In this document: one piece after another, positions 320 to 60,798 of the stretch
Position numbering within the stretch: the first letter of the stretch is position 1
How the letters are laid out: each line of letters starts with the position of its first letter
NCBI GenBank assembly: GCA_049323935.1
Contig: JBMONN010000007.1
Coordinates: forward strand, 340 to 64,339
Direction of reading: 5' to 3'
Length of the DNA stretch: 64,000 nt
From: Thermodesulfobacteriota bacterium
GTDB lineage: Bacteria; Desulfobacterota; Desulfobulbia; Desulfobulbales; SURF-16
Program-made: the position numbers and the translations under genes
Notes under the pieces: model-generated
What the model was told of the DNA's origin: nothing
What the model saw: only the letters and a program-made list of their open reading frames with translations
Databases searched by the model: none

Positions 320-1109
320 CGTCTTCACCAAAGTGGCCAAGATCGATCATTTCACCGGGCCGGTCCTGCCAGGAGAGAGAAACAACCTGTCGCTTGGCCC
401 CGGCGGTCGCCGCGGCCGCAGCGACCGTGTCAAGGGCAAGGGCCGGATCATTGTTGGTTTCGCTGATATGGGCCAGCACGACATGAAAGAGTTTCTCATG
501 GAGAATATCGCCGATCAGGGCAGCAGTTTGGTCATTGGCCAGATGGCCGTGGCGGGAACGAACCCGCTGCTTGAGCTGCAGAGGATAGGGGCCATTTTGC
601 AGCATGCGCGGATCGTGATTGCATTCCAGGACCAACCCGTTGCAGCCGGCCAAATGGTGGCGGATGACCCGGGAGACGGTACCGGTGTCCGTGCAGTAGC
701 CAAGGGAACAAAGGTCATGACGGATAACGAAACCGACCGGGTCGGCGGTATCGTGACAGACGGCAAAAGGATGCACAGAAAAACCGGCGAGGAAAAAGGA
801 TGTCCCGGTGGTGAAGGGATGAACGGCCTCGACCCCGGCCAGGGTTCTGGCTGCGGCGGCAATGGTGCCGGCACTGGCATGAAGCGGCAGACCGAACTTG
901 CGGGCCAGCACCCCGACCCCCTTGAGATGATCGTTGTGTTCATGGGTCAAAAGGATGGCAGACAGTGAAGCGGCCTCGATCCCGATGGCGGCCAGCCGAC
1001 GCTCGATCTCCACGGCGGAAAAACCGTTATCGATCAACAGTGCGCCGCTTTCCGACGCCACGTAGGTGGCGTTCCCCCGGCTGCCGCTGCCCAGCACACA
1101 GAAACGCAT
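309..1109 (-). CDS. MBL-fold metallo-hydrolase
   Basis: 266-aa ORF. N-terminus MRFCVLGSGSRGN and the HxHxDH metal motif (LLTHEHNDHLKG) are typical of the metallo-beta-lactamase fold. Confidence 0.85.
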   Translation of the reverse strand: MRFCVLGSGSRGNATYVASESGALLIDNGFSAVEIERRLAAIGIEAASLSAILLTHEHNDHLKGVGVLARKFGLPLHASAGTIAAAARTLAGVEAVHPFTTGTSFFLAGFSVHPFAVCHDTADPVGFVIRHDLCSLGYCTDTGTVSRVIRHHLAGCNGLVLECNHDPRMLQNGPYPLQLKQRVRSRHGHLANDQTAALIGDILHEKLFHVVLAHISETNNDPALALDTVAAAAATAGAKRQVVSLSWQDRPGEMIDLGHFGEDDDR

Positions 1110-1117
1110 GCCCCTCC

Positions 1118-1582
1118 TTACCGACCGGAGTGCCCGAATCCCCCATCGCCGCGGGTCGTGGCATCAAGGGTTCTGACCGGACGGATCAGGGCCCGGCAGA
1201 CCGGCGCCAGTATGAGCTGGGCAATCCGATCACCCCGCTGGACGGTGTAAGCGGCACTGCCGAGATTGATGAGCCCGATTTTGACTTCACCGCGGTAATC
1301 GGCATCGATCGTGCCTGGACTGTTGACCACCGTGATGCCATGCCTGATTGCCAGTCCGCTGCGGGGACGCACCTGCAATTCGTAGCCTGGCGGGAGCGCT
1401 ACGGCAAAACCGGTTGGCACCAGGGTGATCTGCCCGGGAGAGAGAAGGAGAGGAGCGGGGAGCGCTGCCGCCACATCCATGCCGGCAGCCAGATCGGAAT
1501 GATAGGCGGGAAATGGCAGATCCGCGCAGGTTTCCGGATCGAGCCAGCAGAAAAAAAGATCAACCGGAGCAAAGGACATCAT
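1118..1582 (-). CDS. dut: dUTP diphosphatase
   Basis: 154 aa with dUTPase motifs [30 protein letters not shown] and C-terminal [10 protein letters not shown]. Confidence 0.9.
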
Positions 1583-5026: not shown

Positions 5027-5066
5027 TTTTCACCTTTGTTCACGGCCGTGCGGCCGCCGGTCAACC

Positions 5067-5130
5067 GGATTACGAACTACGTCTGAGTGGTCATCCAGCC
5101 GGTTGACCACTCAGTCCTAATTCGTAACCC
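5067..5130 (-). promoter_or_regulatory. Long imperfect hairpin in the pnp 5' leader (candidate RNase III/autoregulation stem)
   Basis: Inner perfect 11-bp stem CTGAGTGGTCA (5083-5093) / TGACCACTCAG (5104-5114) with a 10-nt loop. Outer 10-bp stem 5067-5076 / 5121-5130 with one mismatch, separated from the inner stem by a 6x6 internal loop. Sits 41 nt upstream of the pnp start. Confidence 0.45.
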
Positions 5131-5242
5131 GTATGATAATGTGGATCCCGCGCAAAGATGAGCCGACACGTCCTTACCGGCAGGCAGCAGCCCACAGGAT
5201 CAGCATGGCCGGCGATCTTCTTTTCGGCGGGACGGTCAGAAC

Positions 5243-6477: not shown

Positions 6478-7442
6478 CGGCGGAGCAGATCGTGCAGGGA
6501 GACCAGCAGCTCCTCACGGACCTGCGCCACATTTTTGCCGGCAACCTTGAAACCCGAGGCGTTGCGGTGCCCCCCCCCACCGAATTTCTGGGCCACCGCT
6601 GCCACGTCATAGTCACCCTTGGAGCGAAGGCTGACGCCGACGACATCCGCTGACTCTTTGATAAAGGCAGCGATTCTCACCGTTTCCAGAGAGCGGGGAT
6701 AATTAATGAACAACTCCGTATCAGCGGCAGTGGTGCCGGTGCGTTCGTAGAGTTCACGGGTTACCTGGATGACAGCCAGCTTCTCATCGTCATAGAGGGT
6801 CAGGGTCGCCAGTACCTCCTGGAGCAACTGGAGACGATTGCGGGTAAAATTGTCAAAAATTTTCCCTGCGATTTCGGCAGGCTTTACCCCCAAGGCCACC
6901 AGAGCACCGGCAATCCGCAGGGTATCGGCCGACGTCGAGGCATACTTAAAAGAGCCGGTGTCGGAAACAATGGCAGAATAGAGACAGTAGGCGGTCTCGT
7001 AGTCGATTTCTGCCCCCAGGCCTCTTATCAGTTCATAGACCATCTCGCCGGTGGATGATTTAGTCGGGTCAACCCAGCGAAAATGACCAAAATTTTTGTG
7101 CCCGGTATGGTGATCAATGACAACAAATGGGTCAACCTGCAACAGGCTATCCTTTGCCTTGCCGAGGCGGAGGTCATCGCCGCAGTCCAGTGCAATGCCG
7201 CAATCAAAACGCCCTAGCGGTGGAATCCCGATATCGAGACGGTCCGAGCCGGGTAAAAACTCGAGAATGTAATGAGCAGGTTCTTCGCTGTAGAGATACA
7301 CCTGCTTTCCCAAGACACGCAGGACATTGCCAAGGGCGAGTTGCGAACCGAGGGCATCGACATCCGGAAAAACGTGGGTGGCAATGAGAACGCTCTTCGC
7401 CGACCGCAGGACGGCTATAATCTCATTCAGTTCCTGCTTCAT
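6474..7442 (-). CDS. nrnA: DHH/DHHA1 phosphoesterase, NrnA-like oligoribonuclease/pAp phosphatase
   Basis: 322 aa. DHH motifs (HVFPDVDALGS, VIDHHTGH) and DHHA1 motif FGGGGHRNASG. Sits between rbfA and truB. Confidence 0.8.
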   Translation of the reverse strand: MKQELNEIIAVLRSAKSVLIATHVFPDVDALGSQLALGNVLRVLGKQVYLYSEEPAHYILEFLPGSDRLDIGIPPLGRFDCGIALDCGDDLRLGKAKDSLLQVDPFVVIDHHTGHKNFGHFRWVDPTKSSTGEMVYELIRGLGAEIDYETAYCLYSAIVSDTGSFKYASTSADTLRIAGALVALGVKPAEIAGKIFDNFTRNRLQLLQEVLATLTLYDDEKLAVIQVTRELYERTGTTAADTELFINYPRSLETVRIAAFIKESADVVGVSLRSKGDYDVAAVAQKFGGGGHRNASGFKVAGKNVAQVREELLVSLHDLLRR

Positions 7443-13248: not shown

Positions 13249-13324
13249 TGGAGCGGACAACGGGATTCGAACCCGCGACACCAAGCTTGGGAAGCTTGTA
13301 CTCTACCAGCTGAGCTACGTCCGC
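13249..13324 (-). tRNA. tRNA-Gly (anticodon CCC)
   Basis: 76-nt cloverleaf folded by hand: GCGGACG/TA/GCTC-AGCTGGTA-GAGT/A/CAAGC-TTCCCAA-GCTTG/GTGTC/GCGGG-TTCGAAT-CCCGT/TGTCCGC/T/CCA. CCA is encoded. Confidence 0.92.
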
Positions 13325-20967: not shown

Positions 20968-21530
20968 CAGCTTTGTTCCTCCGCAGATTCTTTCTTGGCC
21001 GCCTGCTTCTTTTCCGCAGCGGCTTTCTTGGCTGCCTCCTTCTTTTCCTCCTCCTGCCTCAGGAGCTCCGGATCAACCTTGGGCTCAGGCACCCCTTCTG
21101 GATGGAGCCGTTGCAGGAGATCGAAGGTAAAATCCTCCCGACGGGTGCTGGCCAGGTTATAGTCCTTGGAAAAGGTGATAGCCTCGGGCTTGCAGTTATC
21201 GACACACTGGCCGCAGAGACTGCAGGTGGTGAAATTGAGTATATAGGCGGTCACCACCTTGCCCTTGACCCCGGGGCGTTTTTCCGACTTCACCGTGATG
21301 CAGCCGGACGGGCAGCCCTTTTCACACATACCGCAGGCAATGCAACGATGGGTGCCGGTCTTTTCATCCTTGACCATCTCGATGTGCCCCCGGTAGCGGG
21401 GAGTCATCTTCAGCGCTTCGTGGGGATACTGCAGGGTGATCGGTTTTTTAACAAATTCTTTAATGGTGATGTTCAGGCCGATCACCAGACTCTTGGTCCC
21501 GTTCAGCAAATCTCTAAAGTACCCGGACAT
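20967..21530 (-). CDS. nuoI: Complex I subunit I (2x[4Fe-4S] ferredoxin-like) with a Lys/Ala/Glu-rich C-terminal tail
   Basis: The track ORF extends to 21734. I place the start at the ATG at 21530 (MSGYFRDLLNGTKS...), 2 nt after the nuoH stop. Cluster motifs CIACGMCEKGCP and CSLCGQCVDNCP. Tail is ...EEEKKEAAKKAAAEKKQAAKKESAEEQS. Confidence 0.88.
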   Translation of the reverse strand: MSGYFRDLLNGTKSLVIGLNITIKEFVKKPITLQYPHEALKMTPRYRGHIEMVKDEKTGTHRCIACGMCEKGCPSGCITVKSEKRPGVKGKVVTAYILNFTTCSLCGQCVDNCKPEAITFSKDYNLASTRREDFTFDLLQRLHPEGVPEPKVDPELLRQEEEKKEAAKKAAAEKKQAAKKESAEEQS

Positions 21531-27359: not shown

Positions 27360-27435
<76 letters not shown>

Positions 27436-34667: not shown

Positions 34668-35648
34668 TCATTCCAGCCATTGCCGGGCACGGGCGGCCTC
34701 CAATACCAGGTTCTTCAATCCGGTAATGAAGGTGGGCATGACATTGAGTGACTCGGTGCGGGCAAGCTCCATCCCGAGTCCGGCCGCCAGCTCGCGGTAC
34801 TCGATGTCGATTTCATAGAGCGTTTCCACATGATCGGAGACAAAGCTGAGCGGGACCAACAGCACCTGCCTGCACCCGAGACCGGCCACCTCCCGCAGGG
34901 TATCCGGGGTCGACGGCGCCAACCACTCTACCGGGCCACTACGGCTCTGAAAGCAGAGGGTACCCGCCACACCGGTCAGCTTTTCCACTGCCCCGATGGT
35001 CTCTTGCAGATGTTCGAGATAGGGATCCCCTTCCCGGATAAAGGAGACCGGCAGGCTATGGGCGCTGTAGAGGAGACGGACCTCCTTGCCGGCGAATTGC
35101 TCCATACCGCGGACAATGGTGTCGGCCAGACAGCGGACATAGTCGGGCTGCTCCGGCCAGGCTGCGATCTCGGCGATATCGAAACCGGGCGAAAAGGAGG
35201 CGGCGACCCGCCGGAGGTCGTCTAGTGACGAACCGGTGGTGGCCTTGGAGTAGTGCGGGTAGAGGGTAAGCGCCACCAGCCGGCTGATCCCGGCGGCCGC
35301 CATGCTCCTGAGGGTCTCGTCGGCAAAGGGATGCCAGTAACGCATGGCCATGTCCACCGTGAAGGCGCCATAAGGGACAAGATCATGGGCCAGCGCCGCT
35401 CCCTGCTCGCGGGTCAGCCTGTTCAGTGGGGAGCCGCCGCCGATCAGTTTATAGGCCCTGCTGCTCTTGGGGGCGCGGCGTTTGGCGATCATCCAGGCAA
35501 TGGGCTTTTGCAGGAAGGGGGGACCAAGGCGGATGATCTTGCGGTCCGAAAAGAGGTTGTAGAGAAAGGGCCGGACATCGGCAAGACGCTCCGGTCCGCC
35601 GAGATTCAGGAGAATGACGCCGATGGGCGTCCCGGCGCCTTTTTTCAT
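34668..35648 (-). CDS. hemH: Ferrochelatase (protoporphyrin or coproporphyrin type not resolvable by eye)
   Basis: 326 aa. N-terminus GVILLNLGGPERLADVRPFLYNLFSD and SAHSLP, ferrochelatase signatures. Confidence 0.88.
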   Translation of the reverse strand: MKKGAGTPIGVILLNLGGPERLADVRPFLYNLFSDRKIIRLGPPFLQKPIAWMIAKRRAPKSSRAYKLIGGGSPLNRLTREQGAALAHDLVPYGAFTVDMAMRYWHPFADETLRSMAAAGISRLVALTLYPHYSKATTGSSLDDLRRVAASFSPGFDIAEIAAWPEQPDYVRCLADTIVRGMEQFAGKEVRLLYSAHSLPVSFIREGDPYLEHLQETIGAVEKLTGVAGTLCFQSRSGPVEWLAPSTPDTLREVAGLGCRQVLLVPLSFVSDHVETLYEIDIEYRELAAGLGMELARTESLNVMPTFITGLKNLVLEAARARQWLE

Positions 35649-36205
35649 ACCTTCCCCTCCGCGCCCGACCGGAGCAGGTCGGCCACCTCGCCAGGCGCAA
35701 AATCGAGATAGCTAAATATCCGCTTTTCCATGGCCATGCACTTGTGAAAATTTTTCATGATCGAGGCATGGCGGGTCGCATCATTACGACCATACCGCTC
35801 CAGGATATAAGCCAGCCGGTCGTGCAGGCTGACCACCCGGTCGTGGTTGACCCGCTTGTCGGCGTAATAGACGATCTCCTTTTCGCTGATCGGGTCGTGC
35901 CCGTTGGAGCTGATCAGCACATGCTCGGCAACAATGGCGGCAATCTCACTGTAGCCGTGGCGCCGACAGATCTCCTCTCCCATCCTGGCGTGATCGCAGC
36001 GGCTTTCCAGGCAGGGGGTCTTGGCAATGTCGTGGAGCAGGGAGGCGGCTACCACCAGCTCGATGTTGATTGCCTCACCCCGGCGGACAAATCCGCTGGC
36101 AATGAGCTCCGCCACCCGGGCAACCACCCTGGAATGCTCGCGGATGTTGTCGAGCATTGCGTACTCGTCCATCAACCGCAGACAGGTTTCAACCGTGGGA
36201 ATCAT
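35645..36205 (-). CDS. HD superfamily phosphohydrolase (YqeK-like size)
   Basis: 186 aa. HD motif SLLHDIAKTP with an upstream EHSRVVARVA. Its stop overlaps the hemH start (ATGA). Confidence 0.72.
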   Translation of the reverse strand: MIPTVETCLRLMDEYAMLDNIREHSRVVARVAELIASGFVRRGEAINIELVVAASLLHDIAKTPCLESRCDHARMGEEICRRHGYSEIAAIVAEHVLISSNGHDPISEKEIVYYADKRVNHDRVVSLHDRLAYILERYGRNDATRHASIMKNFHKCMAMEKRIFSYLDFAPGEVADLLRSGAEGKV

Positions 36206-36231
36206 GATGGTCTCGTAAAAACCCGCAAATT

Positions 36232-36312
36232 ATGGCAGGCGGGAAAATGAAAACAACGAGTCACAAAACACGACCAGTCGGAATCGTGGTTTTTTTTACG
36301 ATTCCGACAATC
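36232..36312 (+). repeat. Copy 1 of a roughly 78-nt intergenic repeat (A-rich leader plus hairpin)
   Basis: ATGGCAGGCGGGAAAATGAAAACAACGAGTCACAAAACACGACCAGTCGGAATCGTGGTTTTTTTTACGATTCCGACAATC, with a perfect 11-bp stem GTCGGAATCGT/ACGATTCCGAC. Fills most of the hemE-HD spacer, in the orientation opposite to both genes. Confidence 0.8.
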
Positions 36313-36328
36313 ATGACAGACCATTTAT

Positions 36329-55328: not shown

Positions 55329-55512
55329 CCTCCGGTCCTTCCCATGCCAACGGGCGCCTTGCGGGGCGCCCGTTCTTTTTTACGATAAAGTGGGCAACGA
55401 TTTTCCCTTGACAGAAGAAAGCCGGCGCGACTAGGCTACAAAGAGCAACCATCGGATTCGGCCCACCATACCGGCCGACAAAACGTGATGGTCTCGCAAA
55501 AAGCCGCAAAAC

Positions 55513-55592
55513 ATGGCAGGCTGGAAAGCGAAAACAACGAGTTACAAAACACGGCCCATCGGAATCGTCGCTTCTTACGATTTCGACAAAAC
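55513..55592 (+). repeat. Copy 2 of the roughly 78-nt intergenic repeat
   Basis: ATGGCAGGCTGGAAAGCGAAAACAACGAGTTACAAAACACGGCCCATCGGAATCGTCGCTTCTTACGATTTCGACAAAAC. 10-bp stem with one G-U pair. Same orientation as the PilZ gene, whose ATG lies 36 nt downstream. Confidence 0.8.
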
Positions 55593-58395: not shown

Positions 58396-60666
58396 TCACT
58401 CATTGAGATCGAGTCCGCCGGTGCCGGTATCGAATTCGATACCCTTTTCCACCAGATCGCCGGAAACCCCGATACCCAGGGTCTGGCCCAGGCCCACCAG
58501 GGAAAACATCAGCGCCACCCGCTCGTCATCAGCACTCTTCTCCGCCAGAAATTTGACCGCCCAGCACTGGGGATGATAGACCAGACCGACAGAGGCGCTG
58601 ACAATTTCGTTGGTGCGCAAGGATTGCTTGAAATCACCCTGCAGATAGACAAAATCGCTGAGCCGGGTCTGCAGGGCCGCGTTGATCTGATTGATCTCCG
58701 TGCCCTTGGCATAGCGGTAATCAAGCGCCAGGGCATTCCCCCGTTCGGTGGCATATTCGGTGTAAAGATCATAGCCGGTCACCCCCTCTCCATAGACGCT
58801 CATGGTCGTGGTGTAACGGGTCTGCCAACGCGGCAGGGGGTAGACATTGAGCAAAAGTCGCACATCGGAAAAAGGGCGATGTCGGTCATCATGACCGGCG
58901 GGATCACGCCGCGCCTCACGGATATCGTAGGATTGGAGGATCTTCACATATCCCGCGTACCGATTATAAAAATCTCCATCTCGCTCGCCGCTGAGCCGAA
59001 AATAATTGTTGATACCATAGGTGATGCCGTTGCCCCGCTCCAGCAGGTCGATTTCATCGATAGCGGGCAGCTCGTCCTCGCGGTCAAGGGCGAGATAGCT
59101 GTAACCGATCTCGGGCCGCACGGAATGGCTGATTGCGGAAAGCGAGCCGATCTTGACGGCAAAATCGCGCTCCAGGGTGGTGCCCAGGGTGGCGTTGAAA
59201 TCCCAGGCGGTCCGCATCTGCTCGCTGTCAGCGGTCCAGGCATCAGCGGCGCGCCCGTGACCGTCGATGGAATAAAGCGTCCCCCGCACGCCGCTGCGAA
59301 CCGTACCTTCGACAAAAGGCCCCAGGGGGAGAGAAGCGAGGAGGGACGGATAGAGGTCAACCCGCTGCTCACCAATGCCATCTTCCCGCCAGTAATGGTC
59401 ATAACCTGTTTGCCAGCCCAGACTGAGTGGCATCCTCTCCAATTCGGTGATACCGGAATAGAGAAGCCGGGGCAGGGTGTTGACCTGGCCGGGCAGATCA
59501 TCGCGCCCCACCAGGTCGTCGATGGCAACGGCCTGCCCGCCGACAAAGGTGGAAGACCAGGATTTGGTAAGCTGGAACTGCGAGGTCCGGTAGCCTTTGG
59601 TTTCTTCCTCCAGTCCGCGATGGTAATTGCGGAGGAAATCGCTGTTCGTGTCGTCAAAACCGTTGGCAAAGCCGCCCAGCTCCTGGAGATAATCGCGATC
59701 CGAGGCAAAATCGATATCCGCCCGCGCCCACAGGTTATCGCCGAAATCATGATCCAGCTTACCACGAATCCAATACCGGTTATGCGCACTGCGCAGGTAG
59801 TCATCGGACTTGTAATCATCGCCAGGTGTATCGACAGTCCTGTCATACACATAGGTGCCGGCAAGCGTTCCCCGGGAGGTGGCAGAGGCCGCGTAACGGA
59901 ATTCAATGCCGCCCACCATGCCGCGTTCCGACAGATAACCGGGATGGACGGTGATATCGCTGCTCGGGGAGAGATCGACGAAAAAGGGGGTGATAAGCCC
60001 GGTGCCGCTCAGGGTGGACTGGGATATTTCCGGAAGAAGAAAGCCGCTTTTCCTTTTTGTATTAGCCGGGAAGACGAAATAGGGGACATAAAGGACCGGA
60101 ATGTCCCGTACCCGCAGCACCGTGTGCTTCAGGGTCACCACCTTTTCCAGGGTGACCGTCGCCTCGGCGGAATGCATCCGCCACGGCAGGGTTTTGCCTT
60201 CCCGGACCTTGCAGGTGGTGAAATCGCCATCCTTGAAACGGTAGGTAACGGCGTCGGTCTTGAGAACTTCGCTGCCGGAAAAATGCAGATTGTTTTCCGG
60301 GACAAAAAGGGTGCTGTCAACGAGCGTCGCCGTTTCCCGTTTGAGATCAATCACCGCCTCCTGCCCGGTGACATCCTGCCTGGCGGTGTGCATGGAGAGC
60401 GAGCCGCGAGCCACCACCTCGTTGTCGGCGAGGTTGTAGCGCATCCAGTCCGCCTTGATCACCACCGGGTCCGGACTTTTGTCATCGACCCGGCGCAACA
60501 CGACATTGCCCTCAGCCACCACCACCTCGGGCTGGGTGTAGCGGCTGATCCGGTCCGCGCTGATCTCCCATGGTTCGTCGGTATAGTCCCTGGCGAGGCA
60601 GGGGGTGGCTGGGAGACTGAGGCAGAGTAGGGCAAGAGAGATCCACCATGTCCTTGCGATCCGCAT
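58396..60666 (-). CDS. lptD: LPS-assembly outer-membrane protein LptD
   Basis: The track ORF starts at 60798 inside the ilvD-lptD spacer. The ATG at 60666 (MRIARTWWISLALLCLSLPATPCLA) gives a signal peptide; an alternative ATG lies at 60720. OstA-like N-terminal domain plus a large beta-barrel. Confidence 0.85.
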   Translation of the reverse strand: MRIARTWWISLALLCLSLPATPCLARDYTDEPWEISADRISRYTQPEVVVAEGNVVLRRVDDKSPDPVVIKADWMRYNLADNEVVARGSLSMHTARQDVTGQEAVIDLKRETATLVDSTLFVPENNLHFSGSEVLKTDAVTYRFKDGDFTTCKVREGKTLPWRMHSAEATVTLEKVVTLKHTVLRVRDIPVLYVPYFVFPANTKRKSGFLLPEISQSTLSGTGLITPFFVDLSPSSDITVHPGYLSERGMVGGIEFRYAASATSRGTLAGTYVYDRTVDTPGDDYKSDDYLRSAHNRYWIRGKLDHDFGDNLWARADIDFASDRDYLQELGGFANGFDDTNSDFLRNYHRGLEEETKGYRTSQFQLTKSWSSTFVGGQAVAIDDLVGRDDLPGQVNTLPRLLYSGITELERMPLSLGWQTGYDHYWREDGIGEQRVDLYPSLLASLPLGPFVEGTVRSGVRGTLYSIDGHGRAADAWTADSEQMRTAWDFNATLGTTLERDFAVKIGSLSAISHSVRPEIGYSYLALDREDELPAIDEIDLLERGNGITYGINNYFRLSGERDGDFYNRYAGYVKILQSYDIREARRDPAGHDDRHRPFSDVRLLLNVYPLPRWQTRYTTTMSVYGEGVTGYDLYTEYATERGNALALDYRYAKGTEINQINAALQTRLSDFVYLQGDFKQSLRTNEIVSASVGLVYHPQCWAVKFLAEKSADDERVALMFSLVGLGQTLGIGVSGDLVEKGIEFDTGTGGLDLNE

Positions 60667-60744
60667 TTTGCCGGAATCGCAGGAAGCCATTATTCCGACG
60701 GGCCGAGTTTTGTAACTCATGGTTTCATTTTCCCGCCCGCCCTG
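60667..60744 (-). repeat. Copy 3 of the roughly 78-nt intergenic repeat
   Basis: Minus strand: CAGGGCGGGCGGGAAAATGAAACCATGAGTTACAAAACTCGGCCCGTCGGAATAATGGCTTCCTGCGATTCCGGCAAAAT. The stem is degenerate (CGGAAT/ATTCCG). Same orientation as lptD and ends at its ATG. Confidence 0.75.
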
Positions 60745-60798
60745 GATTCCGGGTTGTTGCGAAATCATCTTTTTGCATGGGCACCTATTTTTGTCCAT

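Follow-up and report, generated by a model that had tools for sequence, protein, structure and literature searches.

The intergenic repeat that occurs three times in the 64-kb stretch of DNA analyzed here (the window) is a non-coding element of approximately 103 nt, and it is very probably a MITE, a non-autonomous transposable element. This assignment is based on the inverted-repeat ends, the target duplications that differ from copy to copy, the filled and empty sites in closely related genomes, the insertion of copies in both orientations, and the existence of another repeat family that carries these ends. A small REP/MITE-like repeat was among the readings offered in a preliminary description of this DNA, and that reading is borne out by the same observations.

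The copies in the window were located in three ways that agree with one another. Two degenerate 18-nt sub-patterns each matched the three sites c1, c2, and c3 and no other position in the 64 kb. Dinucleotide shuffles gave 0.02 and 0.09 expected matches for the two sub-patterns, and none of 100 shuffles reached three. An nhmmer profile detected only c1, c2, and c3 in the window, and the window matches of a covariance model built from 16 copies of the element, with the filters off, were again c1, c2, and c3 only (102–119 bits, E-values of 1e-27 to 1e-32). The three intergenic blocks of the preliminary description are thus present at the places and with the sequences given there, and its suggestion to build a covariance model from the copies led, within the window, back to the same three sites.

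Copy c1 is located at positions 36205–36309 (+, 105 nt) and is a full unit, TGATGG...CCGACA. Copy c2, which is the copy of the original finding, is located at 55486–55588 (+, 103 nt), and c3 is located at 60669–60770 (–, 102 nt). The lengths of the window copies were therefore 102–105 nt, and all of the units measured were 96–105 nt. Using an alignment and a repeat finder, the similarity within the family was found to begin about 27 nt to the left of the block first described, with GATGGTCTCGyAAAAAsCCGCAAA..., and the limits of the element are 5'-TGATGGTCTCGyAAAAA and TTTTTrCGATTCCGACA-3'. The core of the block of about 78 nt originally proposed is retained, but its limits are not: the unit is some 27 nt longer leftward, and the last 4 nt or so of the block belong to the flanking target duplication. 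The sole reading frame, ATGGCAGG..., lacks an initiating ATG in c3, and in some copies it is disrupted by indels that are not multiples of three. A small protein encoded by this frame was dropped from consideration because the frame is not conserved among the copies.

The terminal inverted repeats are imperfect (TGATGGTCTCGTAAAAA versus TGTCGGAATCGTAAAAA). When the left 17 nt were compared with the reverse complement of the right 17 nt in 15 copies, 8–13 of the 17 positions were found to be equal. For random window pairs the value was 4.3 ± 1.9 of 17, and 12 equal positions were reached by only 0.04% of these pairs. The left terminal inverted repeat of c2 (55486–55502, +) reads TGATGGTCTCGCAAAAA, and the same terminus opens the second repeat family. 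The tips of the element are 5'-TG...CA-3', with TG at the start of 12 of the 15 copies (AG in the other three) and CA at the end of 13 of the 15. The best single boundary model for the copies is 5'-TGATGG...CCGACA-3', and the exact tips are uncertain by 1–3 nt in some copies because the targets resemble the ends of the element.

The target duplications are A-rich, 4–6 nt in length (mostly 4), and specific to each copy. They were determined to be ATCA for c1, AAAC with an extra G on the left for c2, and AAAA/AAAT for c3; those of other copies are AAAA, AAAT, AAAAT, AAAG, ATCT, AACA, and AATGAA. In the empty sites between acs and PilZ and between flgM and polA, the duplicated sequence is present once. 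The right flank often starts with TGA, so that the target is like the left tip of the element. Other ways of reading the flanks were considered and rejected. Duplications of 8–9 nt (AATCATGA, CGACAAAAC) can be drawn, but no one boundary suits all copies, and the mismatches always fall at positions that are better given to the element's own T...A tips. Att-like recombination with a fixed core was discarded since the flanking repeats vary by copy. A retrotransposon-like reading, with an A-rich tail and 5' truncation, was also set aside, because the "tail" is the target duplication and the truncated copies come from local deletions.

The genes next to the copies were either checked with Pfam or called from a database. 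Copy c1 lies between the stop codon of hemE (URO-D) and the start of an HD-domain gene, with ferrochelatase (hemH) next. All three of these genes are on the minus strand, and c1 is antisense within the operon-like cluster hemE-HD-hemH. Its duplications, ATCA, are found at 36201–36204 on the left and 36310–36313 on the right, and its left tip adjoins the ATG of the HD-domain gene (35645–36205, –). This ATG straddles the junction (36201–36207), with the A being the terminal base of the element and the TG being flank. Since the duplicated ATCA followed by TGA is present on the far side of c1, the sequence before the insertion had the same ATG; the terminal CA of the element together with the flank restores the start codon context of the gene. 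The whole upstream leader of the HD-domain gene was replaced by the insertion, and the start codon was left intact.

Copy c2 follows the terminator of acs (acetyl-CoA synthetase) and ends 39 nt before the ATG of a PilZ gene. Its left duplication, AAAC followed by an extra G, is found at 55481–55485, where the empty sister site reads AGAC, and its right duplication, AAAC, at 55589–55592. Copy c3 is located between the stop codon of ilvD and the start of lptD, where it terminates, and has the orientation of both genes. Its 5'-side duplication is AAAA (60771–60774) and its 3'-side duplication is AAAT (60665–60668); the latter, for which the sister genome has AAAA, overlaps the start codon region of lptD. 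The earlier account gave a gene context for c2 and c3 only, before PilZ and lptD; that of c1, antisense between hemE and the HD-domain gene, had been left out.

Three genomes were compared: genome A is the Thermodesulfobacteriota MAG that contains the window, genome B is GCA_049323655.1, and genome C is GCA_964624225.1 together with the matching Logan contigs. The identity to the window is 95–97.5% over 21 kb for genome B and 93% over 18 kb for genome C. Seven sites were compared across these genomes; two are filled in one genome and empty in another, and three have secondary deletions or rearrangements. The acs/PilZ site (c2) is filled in genome A, was not sampled in genome B, and is empty in five contigs of genome C. 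The empty site reads ACCGGCCGGCA AGAC TCATTCC (also quoted as ...CCGGCCGGCA AGAC TCATTCC), and the window reads ...CCGGCCGACA AAAC G[103-nt element]AAAC CTATTCC, which corresponds to a gain of 108 nt. Copy c2 is a recent, lineage-specific insertion, and sister genome C keeps the same gene and spacer. The flgM/polA site was not sampled in genome A, is empty in genome C (GGCAAGA AAAG TGATGG), and is filled in genome B (GGCAAGC AAAG [TGATCG...CCGACA] AAAG TGACGG), with a gain of 105 nt, or 101 nt plus the 4 nt of AAAG.

The ilvD/lptD site (c3) is filled in genomes A and C and was not sampled in genome B. The left half is identical in A and C, and 14 positions differ in the right half; c3 is an old copy, common to the sister genome, whose right half has decayed. 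At the hemE/HD site (c1) the element is full in genomes A and C, and only the left 34 nt are present in genome B. Along with the rest of the element, the right duplication and 7 nt of flanking sequence are missing from genome B, from which we conclude that there was a secondary deletion in that genome. The copy between a sulfatase and a response regulator is full in genomes A and C and has lost 28 nt at the left end in genome B. Between PAP2 and a response regulator, genome A has the right half only plus half of the sister element (the second repeat family, described below), genome C has the right half only, and genome B was not sampled. The FHA/HDOD site is filled in all three genomes. The coexistence of filled/empty sites with common sites indicates that the family was active both before and after the lineages split.

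The derivatives of the element thus include a 34-nt left remnant, a 28-nt left-end deletion, and copies with the right half only, as in locus L003. The L003 copy lies between an ORF at 1–301 (–) and a feature at 725–1394 (+). By eye, the ORF, with the N-terminus ILICTVGTSLL..., has a CARF/Csx1-type CRISPR-associated look, and the feature is a putative antitoxin/PIN toxin pair. At the FHA/HDOD site, the genome C copy has about 12 substitutions within about 30 nt, and the 150-nt flanks are almost identical (L020 9786–9899 compared with L008 4308–4421). The substitutions fall in P2 and the 5' arm of P3, two of the hairpins described below, and the cluster may have come from gene conversion by a variant copy or from local hypermutation of the hairpin.

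A 21-base pattern was searched against 185,579 species-representative genomes and matched nine loci in two MAGs only, with 4–5 strict matches per genome. No match to this pattern was found in the JGI metagenomes or IMG/VR, and no match to the element consensus was found in the PLSDB plasmids. Together with profile searches of the matched loci, the pattern scan gave a minimum of 13 independent sites. To date, the family has been found only in one narrow clade, in three genomes that are 93–97.5% identical to one another. Conservation across taxa was rejected on the same ground, as the two "other" genomes are these sister genomes. The copies are dispersed between unrelated genes and occur in both orientations relative to them. 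The profile searches placed three copies within one 8-kb stretch; two copies flank gyrB, and one is antisense between gyrB and gyrA. With antisense copies at hemE-HD and gyrB-gyrA, the sense orientation noted earlier for c2 and c3 is not kept throughout the family. Sense copies that lie 0–40 nt before a start codon are c2, c3, the copy at the sulfatase/response-regulator site, and one between dnaN and gyrB. The copy at the htpG site is downstream of convergent genes. The short-read Logan contigs L010, L018, L023, L026, L027, L029, and L030, which derive from the same samples, start or stop inside the element. Because contigs end in this manner, the MAG-based copy counts given above are probably underestimates.

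A second repeat family of approximately 135 nt was found to have the same ends as the element. Its left end, TGATGGTCTCGTAAAA, is that of the element, its right end, ...TTTTACGrkTTTGTCA, matches that of the element, and its duplications are AAAA. The interior is unrelated and consists of a long hairpin, CCACAGAG.../...CTCTGTGG, also given as CCACAGAGAyCACAGAG ... CTCTGTGCGCTCTGTGG. Copies of this family are located in L001 (5459–5593), L006 (2865–2998 and 4980–5119), L018 (5486–5541), L019 (2045–2180 and, on the minus strand, 7127–7245), and L025 (5163–5293 and 7274–7401), and no copy was found within the 64-kb window. In L001 and L019 the second family stands head-to-tail with the element, with AAAA between the two. 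Two different interiors with one pair of ends are what mobilization by one transposase predicts.

Mobilization of the element presumably occurs in trans. A transposase encoded elsewhere would presumably bind both ends and paste the unit into A-rich intergenic DNA. Insertion duplicates 4–6 nt of A-rich sequence, and the target often directly precedes a TGA similar to the one at the element's own left tip. The TG...CA tips and duplications of 4–5 nt are those that we take to be typical of the IS3-like DDE elements (the retroviral-integrase-like group), and the tips and the duplication length suggest that the partner enzyme may be an IS3-like DDE transposase. An autonomous IS or a transposase gene with the ends of the element was not found in approximately 300 kb of sequence from the clade, and there was no transposase among the genes called in the loci covered. 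The occurrence of copies near the starts of PilZ, lptD, and the HD-domain gene is attributed to a preference for insertion into A-rich spacers and not to a shared regulatory function. Besides this negative result, points that count against a MITE are that the terminal repeats agree at 13 of 17 positions at best, that the duplications are of no fixed length (4–6 nt), that there is an extra base to the left of c2, and that the tips are ambiguous by 1–3 nt.

The element contains three hairpins, and the positions given here are those of c2, all on the plus strand. Hairpin P1 (55503–55524) is formed from GCCGC ... GCTGG, in which 3 of 5 pairs form; the family consensus is CCCGC/GCGGG. Hairpin P2 (55538–55553), CGAGTT ACAA AACACG, has an internal A.A mismatch and is within the most conserved A-rich stretch. 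Hairpin P3 (55558–55587) is formed from ATCGGAATCGT and ACGATTTCGAC with one G.U pair, and its 3' arm and loop are the right terminal inverted repeat. The 3' stem-loop of the preliminary description is therefore present in the element, and its conservation is to some degree strand-specific. For P1–P3, 85% of the cells were paired, compared with 27–42% when the partners were slid, and four pairs were changed on both sides, compared with 1.2 in shuffles. Among the non-Watson–Crick cells, there were 30 forward-strand G.U and 9 A.C (binomial p ~0.001, with cells that are not fully independent). At the FHA/HDOD site, a compensatory change from U-A to C-G at the top of P3 distinguishes the orthologues of genomes A and B.

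The right half of the element (GAAAACAACGAGTTACAAAACACGGCCCGTCGGAATCG) is about 3 times better conserved among the copies than the left terminal repeat. At the ilvD/lptD and FHA/HDOD sites, by contrast, changes in one lineage have accumulated in this half at a much higher rate than in the flanks. Some strand-specific constraint thus applies to the hairpins, and it may act in source copies or at some sites rather than uniformly after insertion. The conservation of the right half, the G.U bias, and the compensatory change in P3 are not predicted by plain double-strand cut-and-paste. These three observations are the reason for considering that the right half (the A-rich linker, P2, and P3) might be a strand-specific functional module, either for single-strand recognition or as a co-opted RNA hairpin, although we regard this as rather unlikely. 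If it were such a module, a mobilizing enzyme could recognize the right half in single-stranded form and use an unusual route that still leaves target duplications. Alternatively, an RNA hairpin co-opted by the host could alter how neighboring transcripts, such as those of PilZ, lptD, and the HD-domain gene, are expressed or how stable they are.

The whole window was scanned against Rfam at gathering thresholds, and no match was found at the element; the sole matches were two tRNA genes elsewhere (13252–13324 and 27363–27435, both –). With c1 and c2 scanned at E ≤ 10, the only matches had E > 1.5 and were to miRNA and isrK models. Scans for a sigma-70-like promoter and for a forward-strand terminator gave none within the unit, and, by eye, the spacing and the GG/GC elements are unlike the –24/–12 consensus of sigma-54. 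The 3' hairpin of the element is followed by A's and not U's. With regard to IHF, the segment AAACAACGAGTTA of the element was compared by eye with WATCAANNNNTTR, and 12 of the 13 positions are equal. Two other repeats were noticed in the window. At 5061–5136 there is an inverted repeat of 36 nt, near-perfect (81% complementarity) and with a spacer of 4 nt (TCAACCGGATTACGAACTACGTCTGAGTGGTCATCC / GGTTGACCACTCAGTCCTAATTCGTAACCCGTATGA); its sequence shows no relationship to that of the element. A tandem pair of 33-nt units with 85% identity (TCCGCAGATTCTTTCTTGGCCGCCTGCTTCTTT) is located at 20980–21045 and may be a coding repeat.

The paired hairpins with their double-sided changes, the G.U bias of the forward strand, the compensatory change between orthologues, and the several sense copies close to start codons are all features that a cis-regulatory leader RNA, riboswitch-like or protein-binding, would have if it controlled PilZ, lptD, and other genes. 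However, the PilZ copy is missing from a sister genome with the same gene and spacer, copies lie antisense in operon-like clusters, the copy at the htpG site follows convergent genes, and the genes next to the copies have no common function. The Rfam searches were null at any threshold, the structured right half at ilvD-lptD decays faster than its flanks, and such a function would leave the target duplications and the inverted-repeat ends unexplained. A leader RNA family is for these reasons highly improbable. The unrelated neighbors, the two antisense copies, and the Rfam result also speak against regulation by RNA or protein binding as the reason for the copies, which had been put forward originally, and a secondary effect of the stem-loop at the RNA level may still occur given its strand-specific conservation. 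The idea of a c-di-GMP riboswitch, suggested by the PilZ neighbor, was a false lead, because the copy next to PilZ is a recent insertion that is absent from the sister genome. It is even less probable that the copies are independently transcribed small RNA genes. Their size of approximately 100 nt, their structure, and their occurrence in multiple intergenic copies would fit, but no sigma-70-like promoter was seen at the unit or within it, the 3' hairpin is not followed by U's, Rfam has no relative, and the copies show insertion polymorphism with target duplications.

A different form of mobility was also considered, in which the element would be REP/BIME-like or an IS200/IS605-derived PATE that is moved by an HUH/Y1 single-strand transposase (RAYT or TnpA). 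The small size, the intergenic location, the strand-specific hairpins with G.U pairs, and the conserved hairpin-bearing right half are consistent with single-strand recognition. These systems, however, insert without target duplication beside a fixed tetra- or pentanucleotide, whereas the flanking repeats found here vary and are single in the empty sites. In addition, the sequences of P1 and P3 are unrelated to each other, which distinguishes them from the ends of IS200/IS605; there is no REP-type GTAG head; and the ends form inverted repeats. We consider this explanation to be improbable, and the reading of the element as a MITE is retained.

Bacterial MITEs include Correia/NEMIS from Neisseria, ERIC/IRU from the enterobacteria, and RUP from Streptococcus pneumoniae. 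These are non-coding, 100–150 nt in length, and lineage-restricted, and they have terminal inverted repeats, short target duplications, and hairpins when transcribed. The element described here resembles them in being intergenic, present in both orientations, often near gene starts, and polymorphic between close relatives, but it has no sequence similarity to any of them. Correia and RUP duplicate TA, whereas the element duplicates 4–6 A-rich nt and has TG...CA tips. Its copy number is apparently low compared with those of the known bacterial MITEs, and the right half of the interior is better conserved than one of the terminal repeats.

The IS3-family and related DDE elements, considered here as the presumed source of the ends, include IS3, IS481, and IS21, and the Mu/Tn7/Tn402 group. 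With these the element shares TG...CA termini, terminal repeats that are imperfect and some 20 nt long, duplications of 3–5 nt, and a tendency to insert beside sequences like its own ends. Where two units abut (L001 and L019), a right-end TTGTCA or CCGACA is followed about 15 nt later by a left-end TAAAAA, which by eye is like the junction promoters of circle-forming IS. The element differs from this group in that no transposase gene was found in the ~300 kb of clade sequence, no known IS end was recognized, and one duplication is 6 nt. With REP/BIME and RAYT, and with the IS200/IS605 PATEs, it has in common a short intergenic repeat built around an imperfect hairpin with strand-specific conservation; those elements have neither target duplications nor inverted-repeat termini, and this one has both.

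A literature search on MITEs in Desulfobulbia gave no match, and searches with sequence strings from the element gave primer matches only. In Rfam and in the literature covered by these searches, we found no earlier description of the family, and by its features it would be classed as an ordinary bacterial MITE. For the annotation of genomes from uncultured Thermodesulfobacteriota and Desulfobulbia, the present work defines two repeat families, the element and its sister, that have their ends in common. Some assembly breaks fall at these repeats, which sit a few bases from start codons and serve as markers of recent change between genomes of 93–97% identity. Should the conserved right half turn out to be functional, this would be a further case of a MITE that spreads a ready-made structured module.
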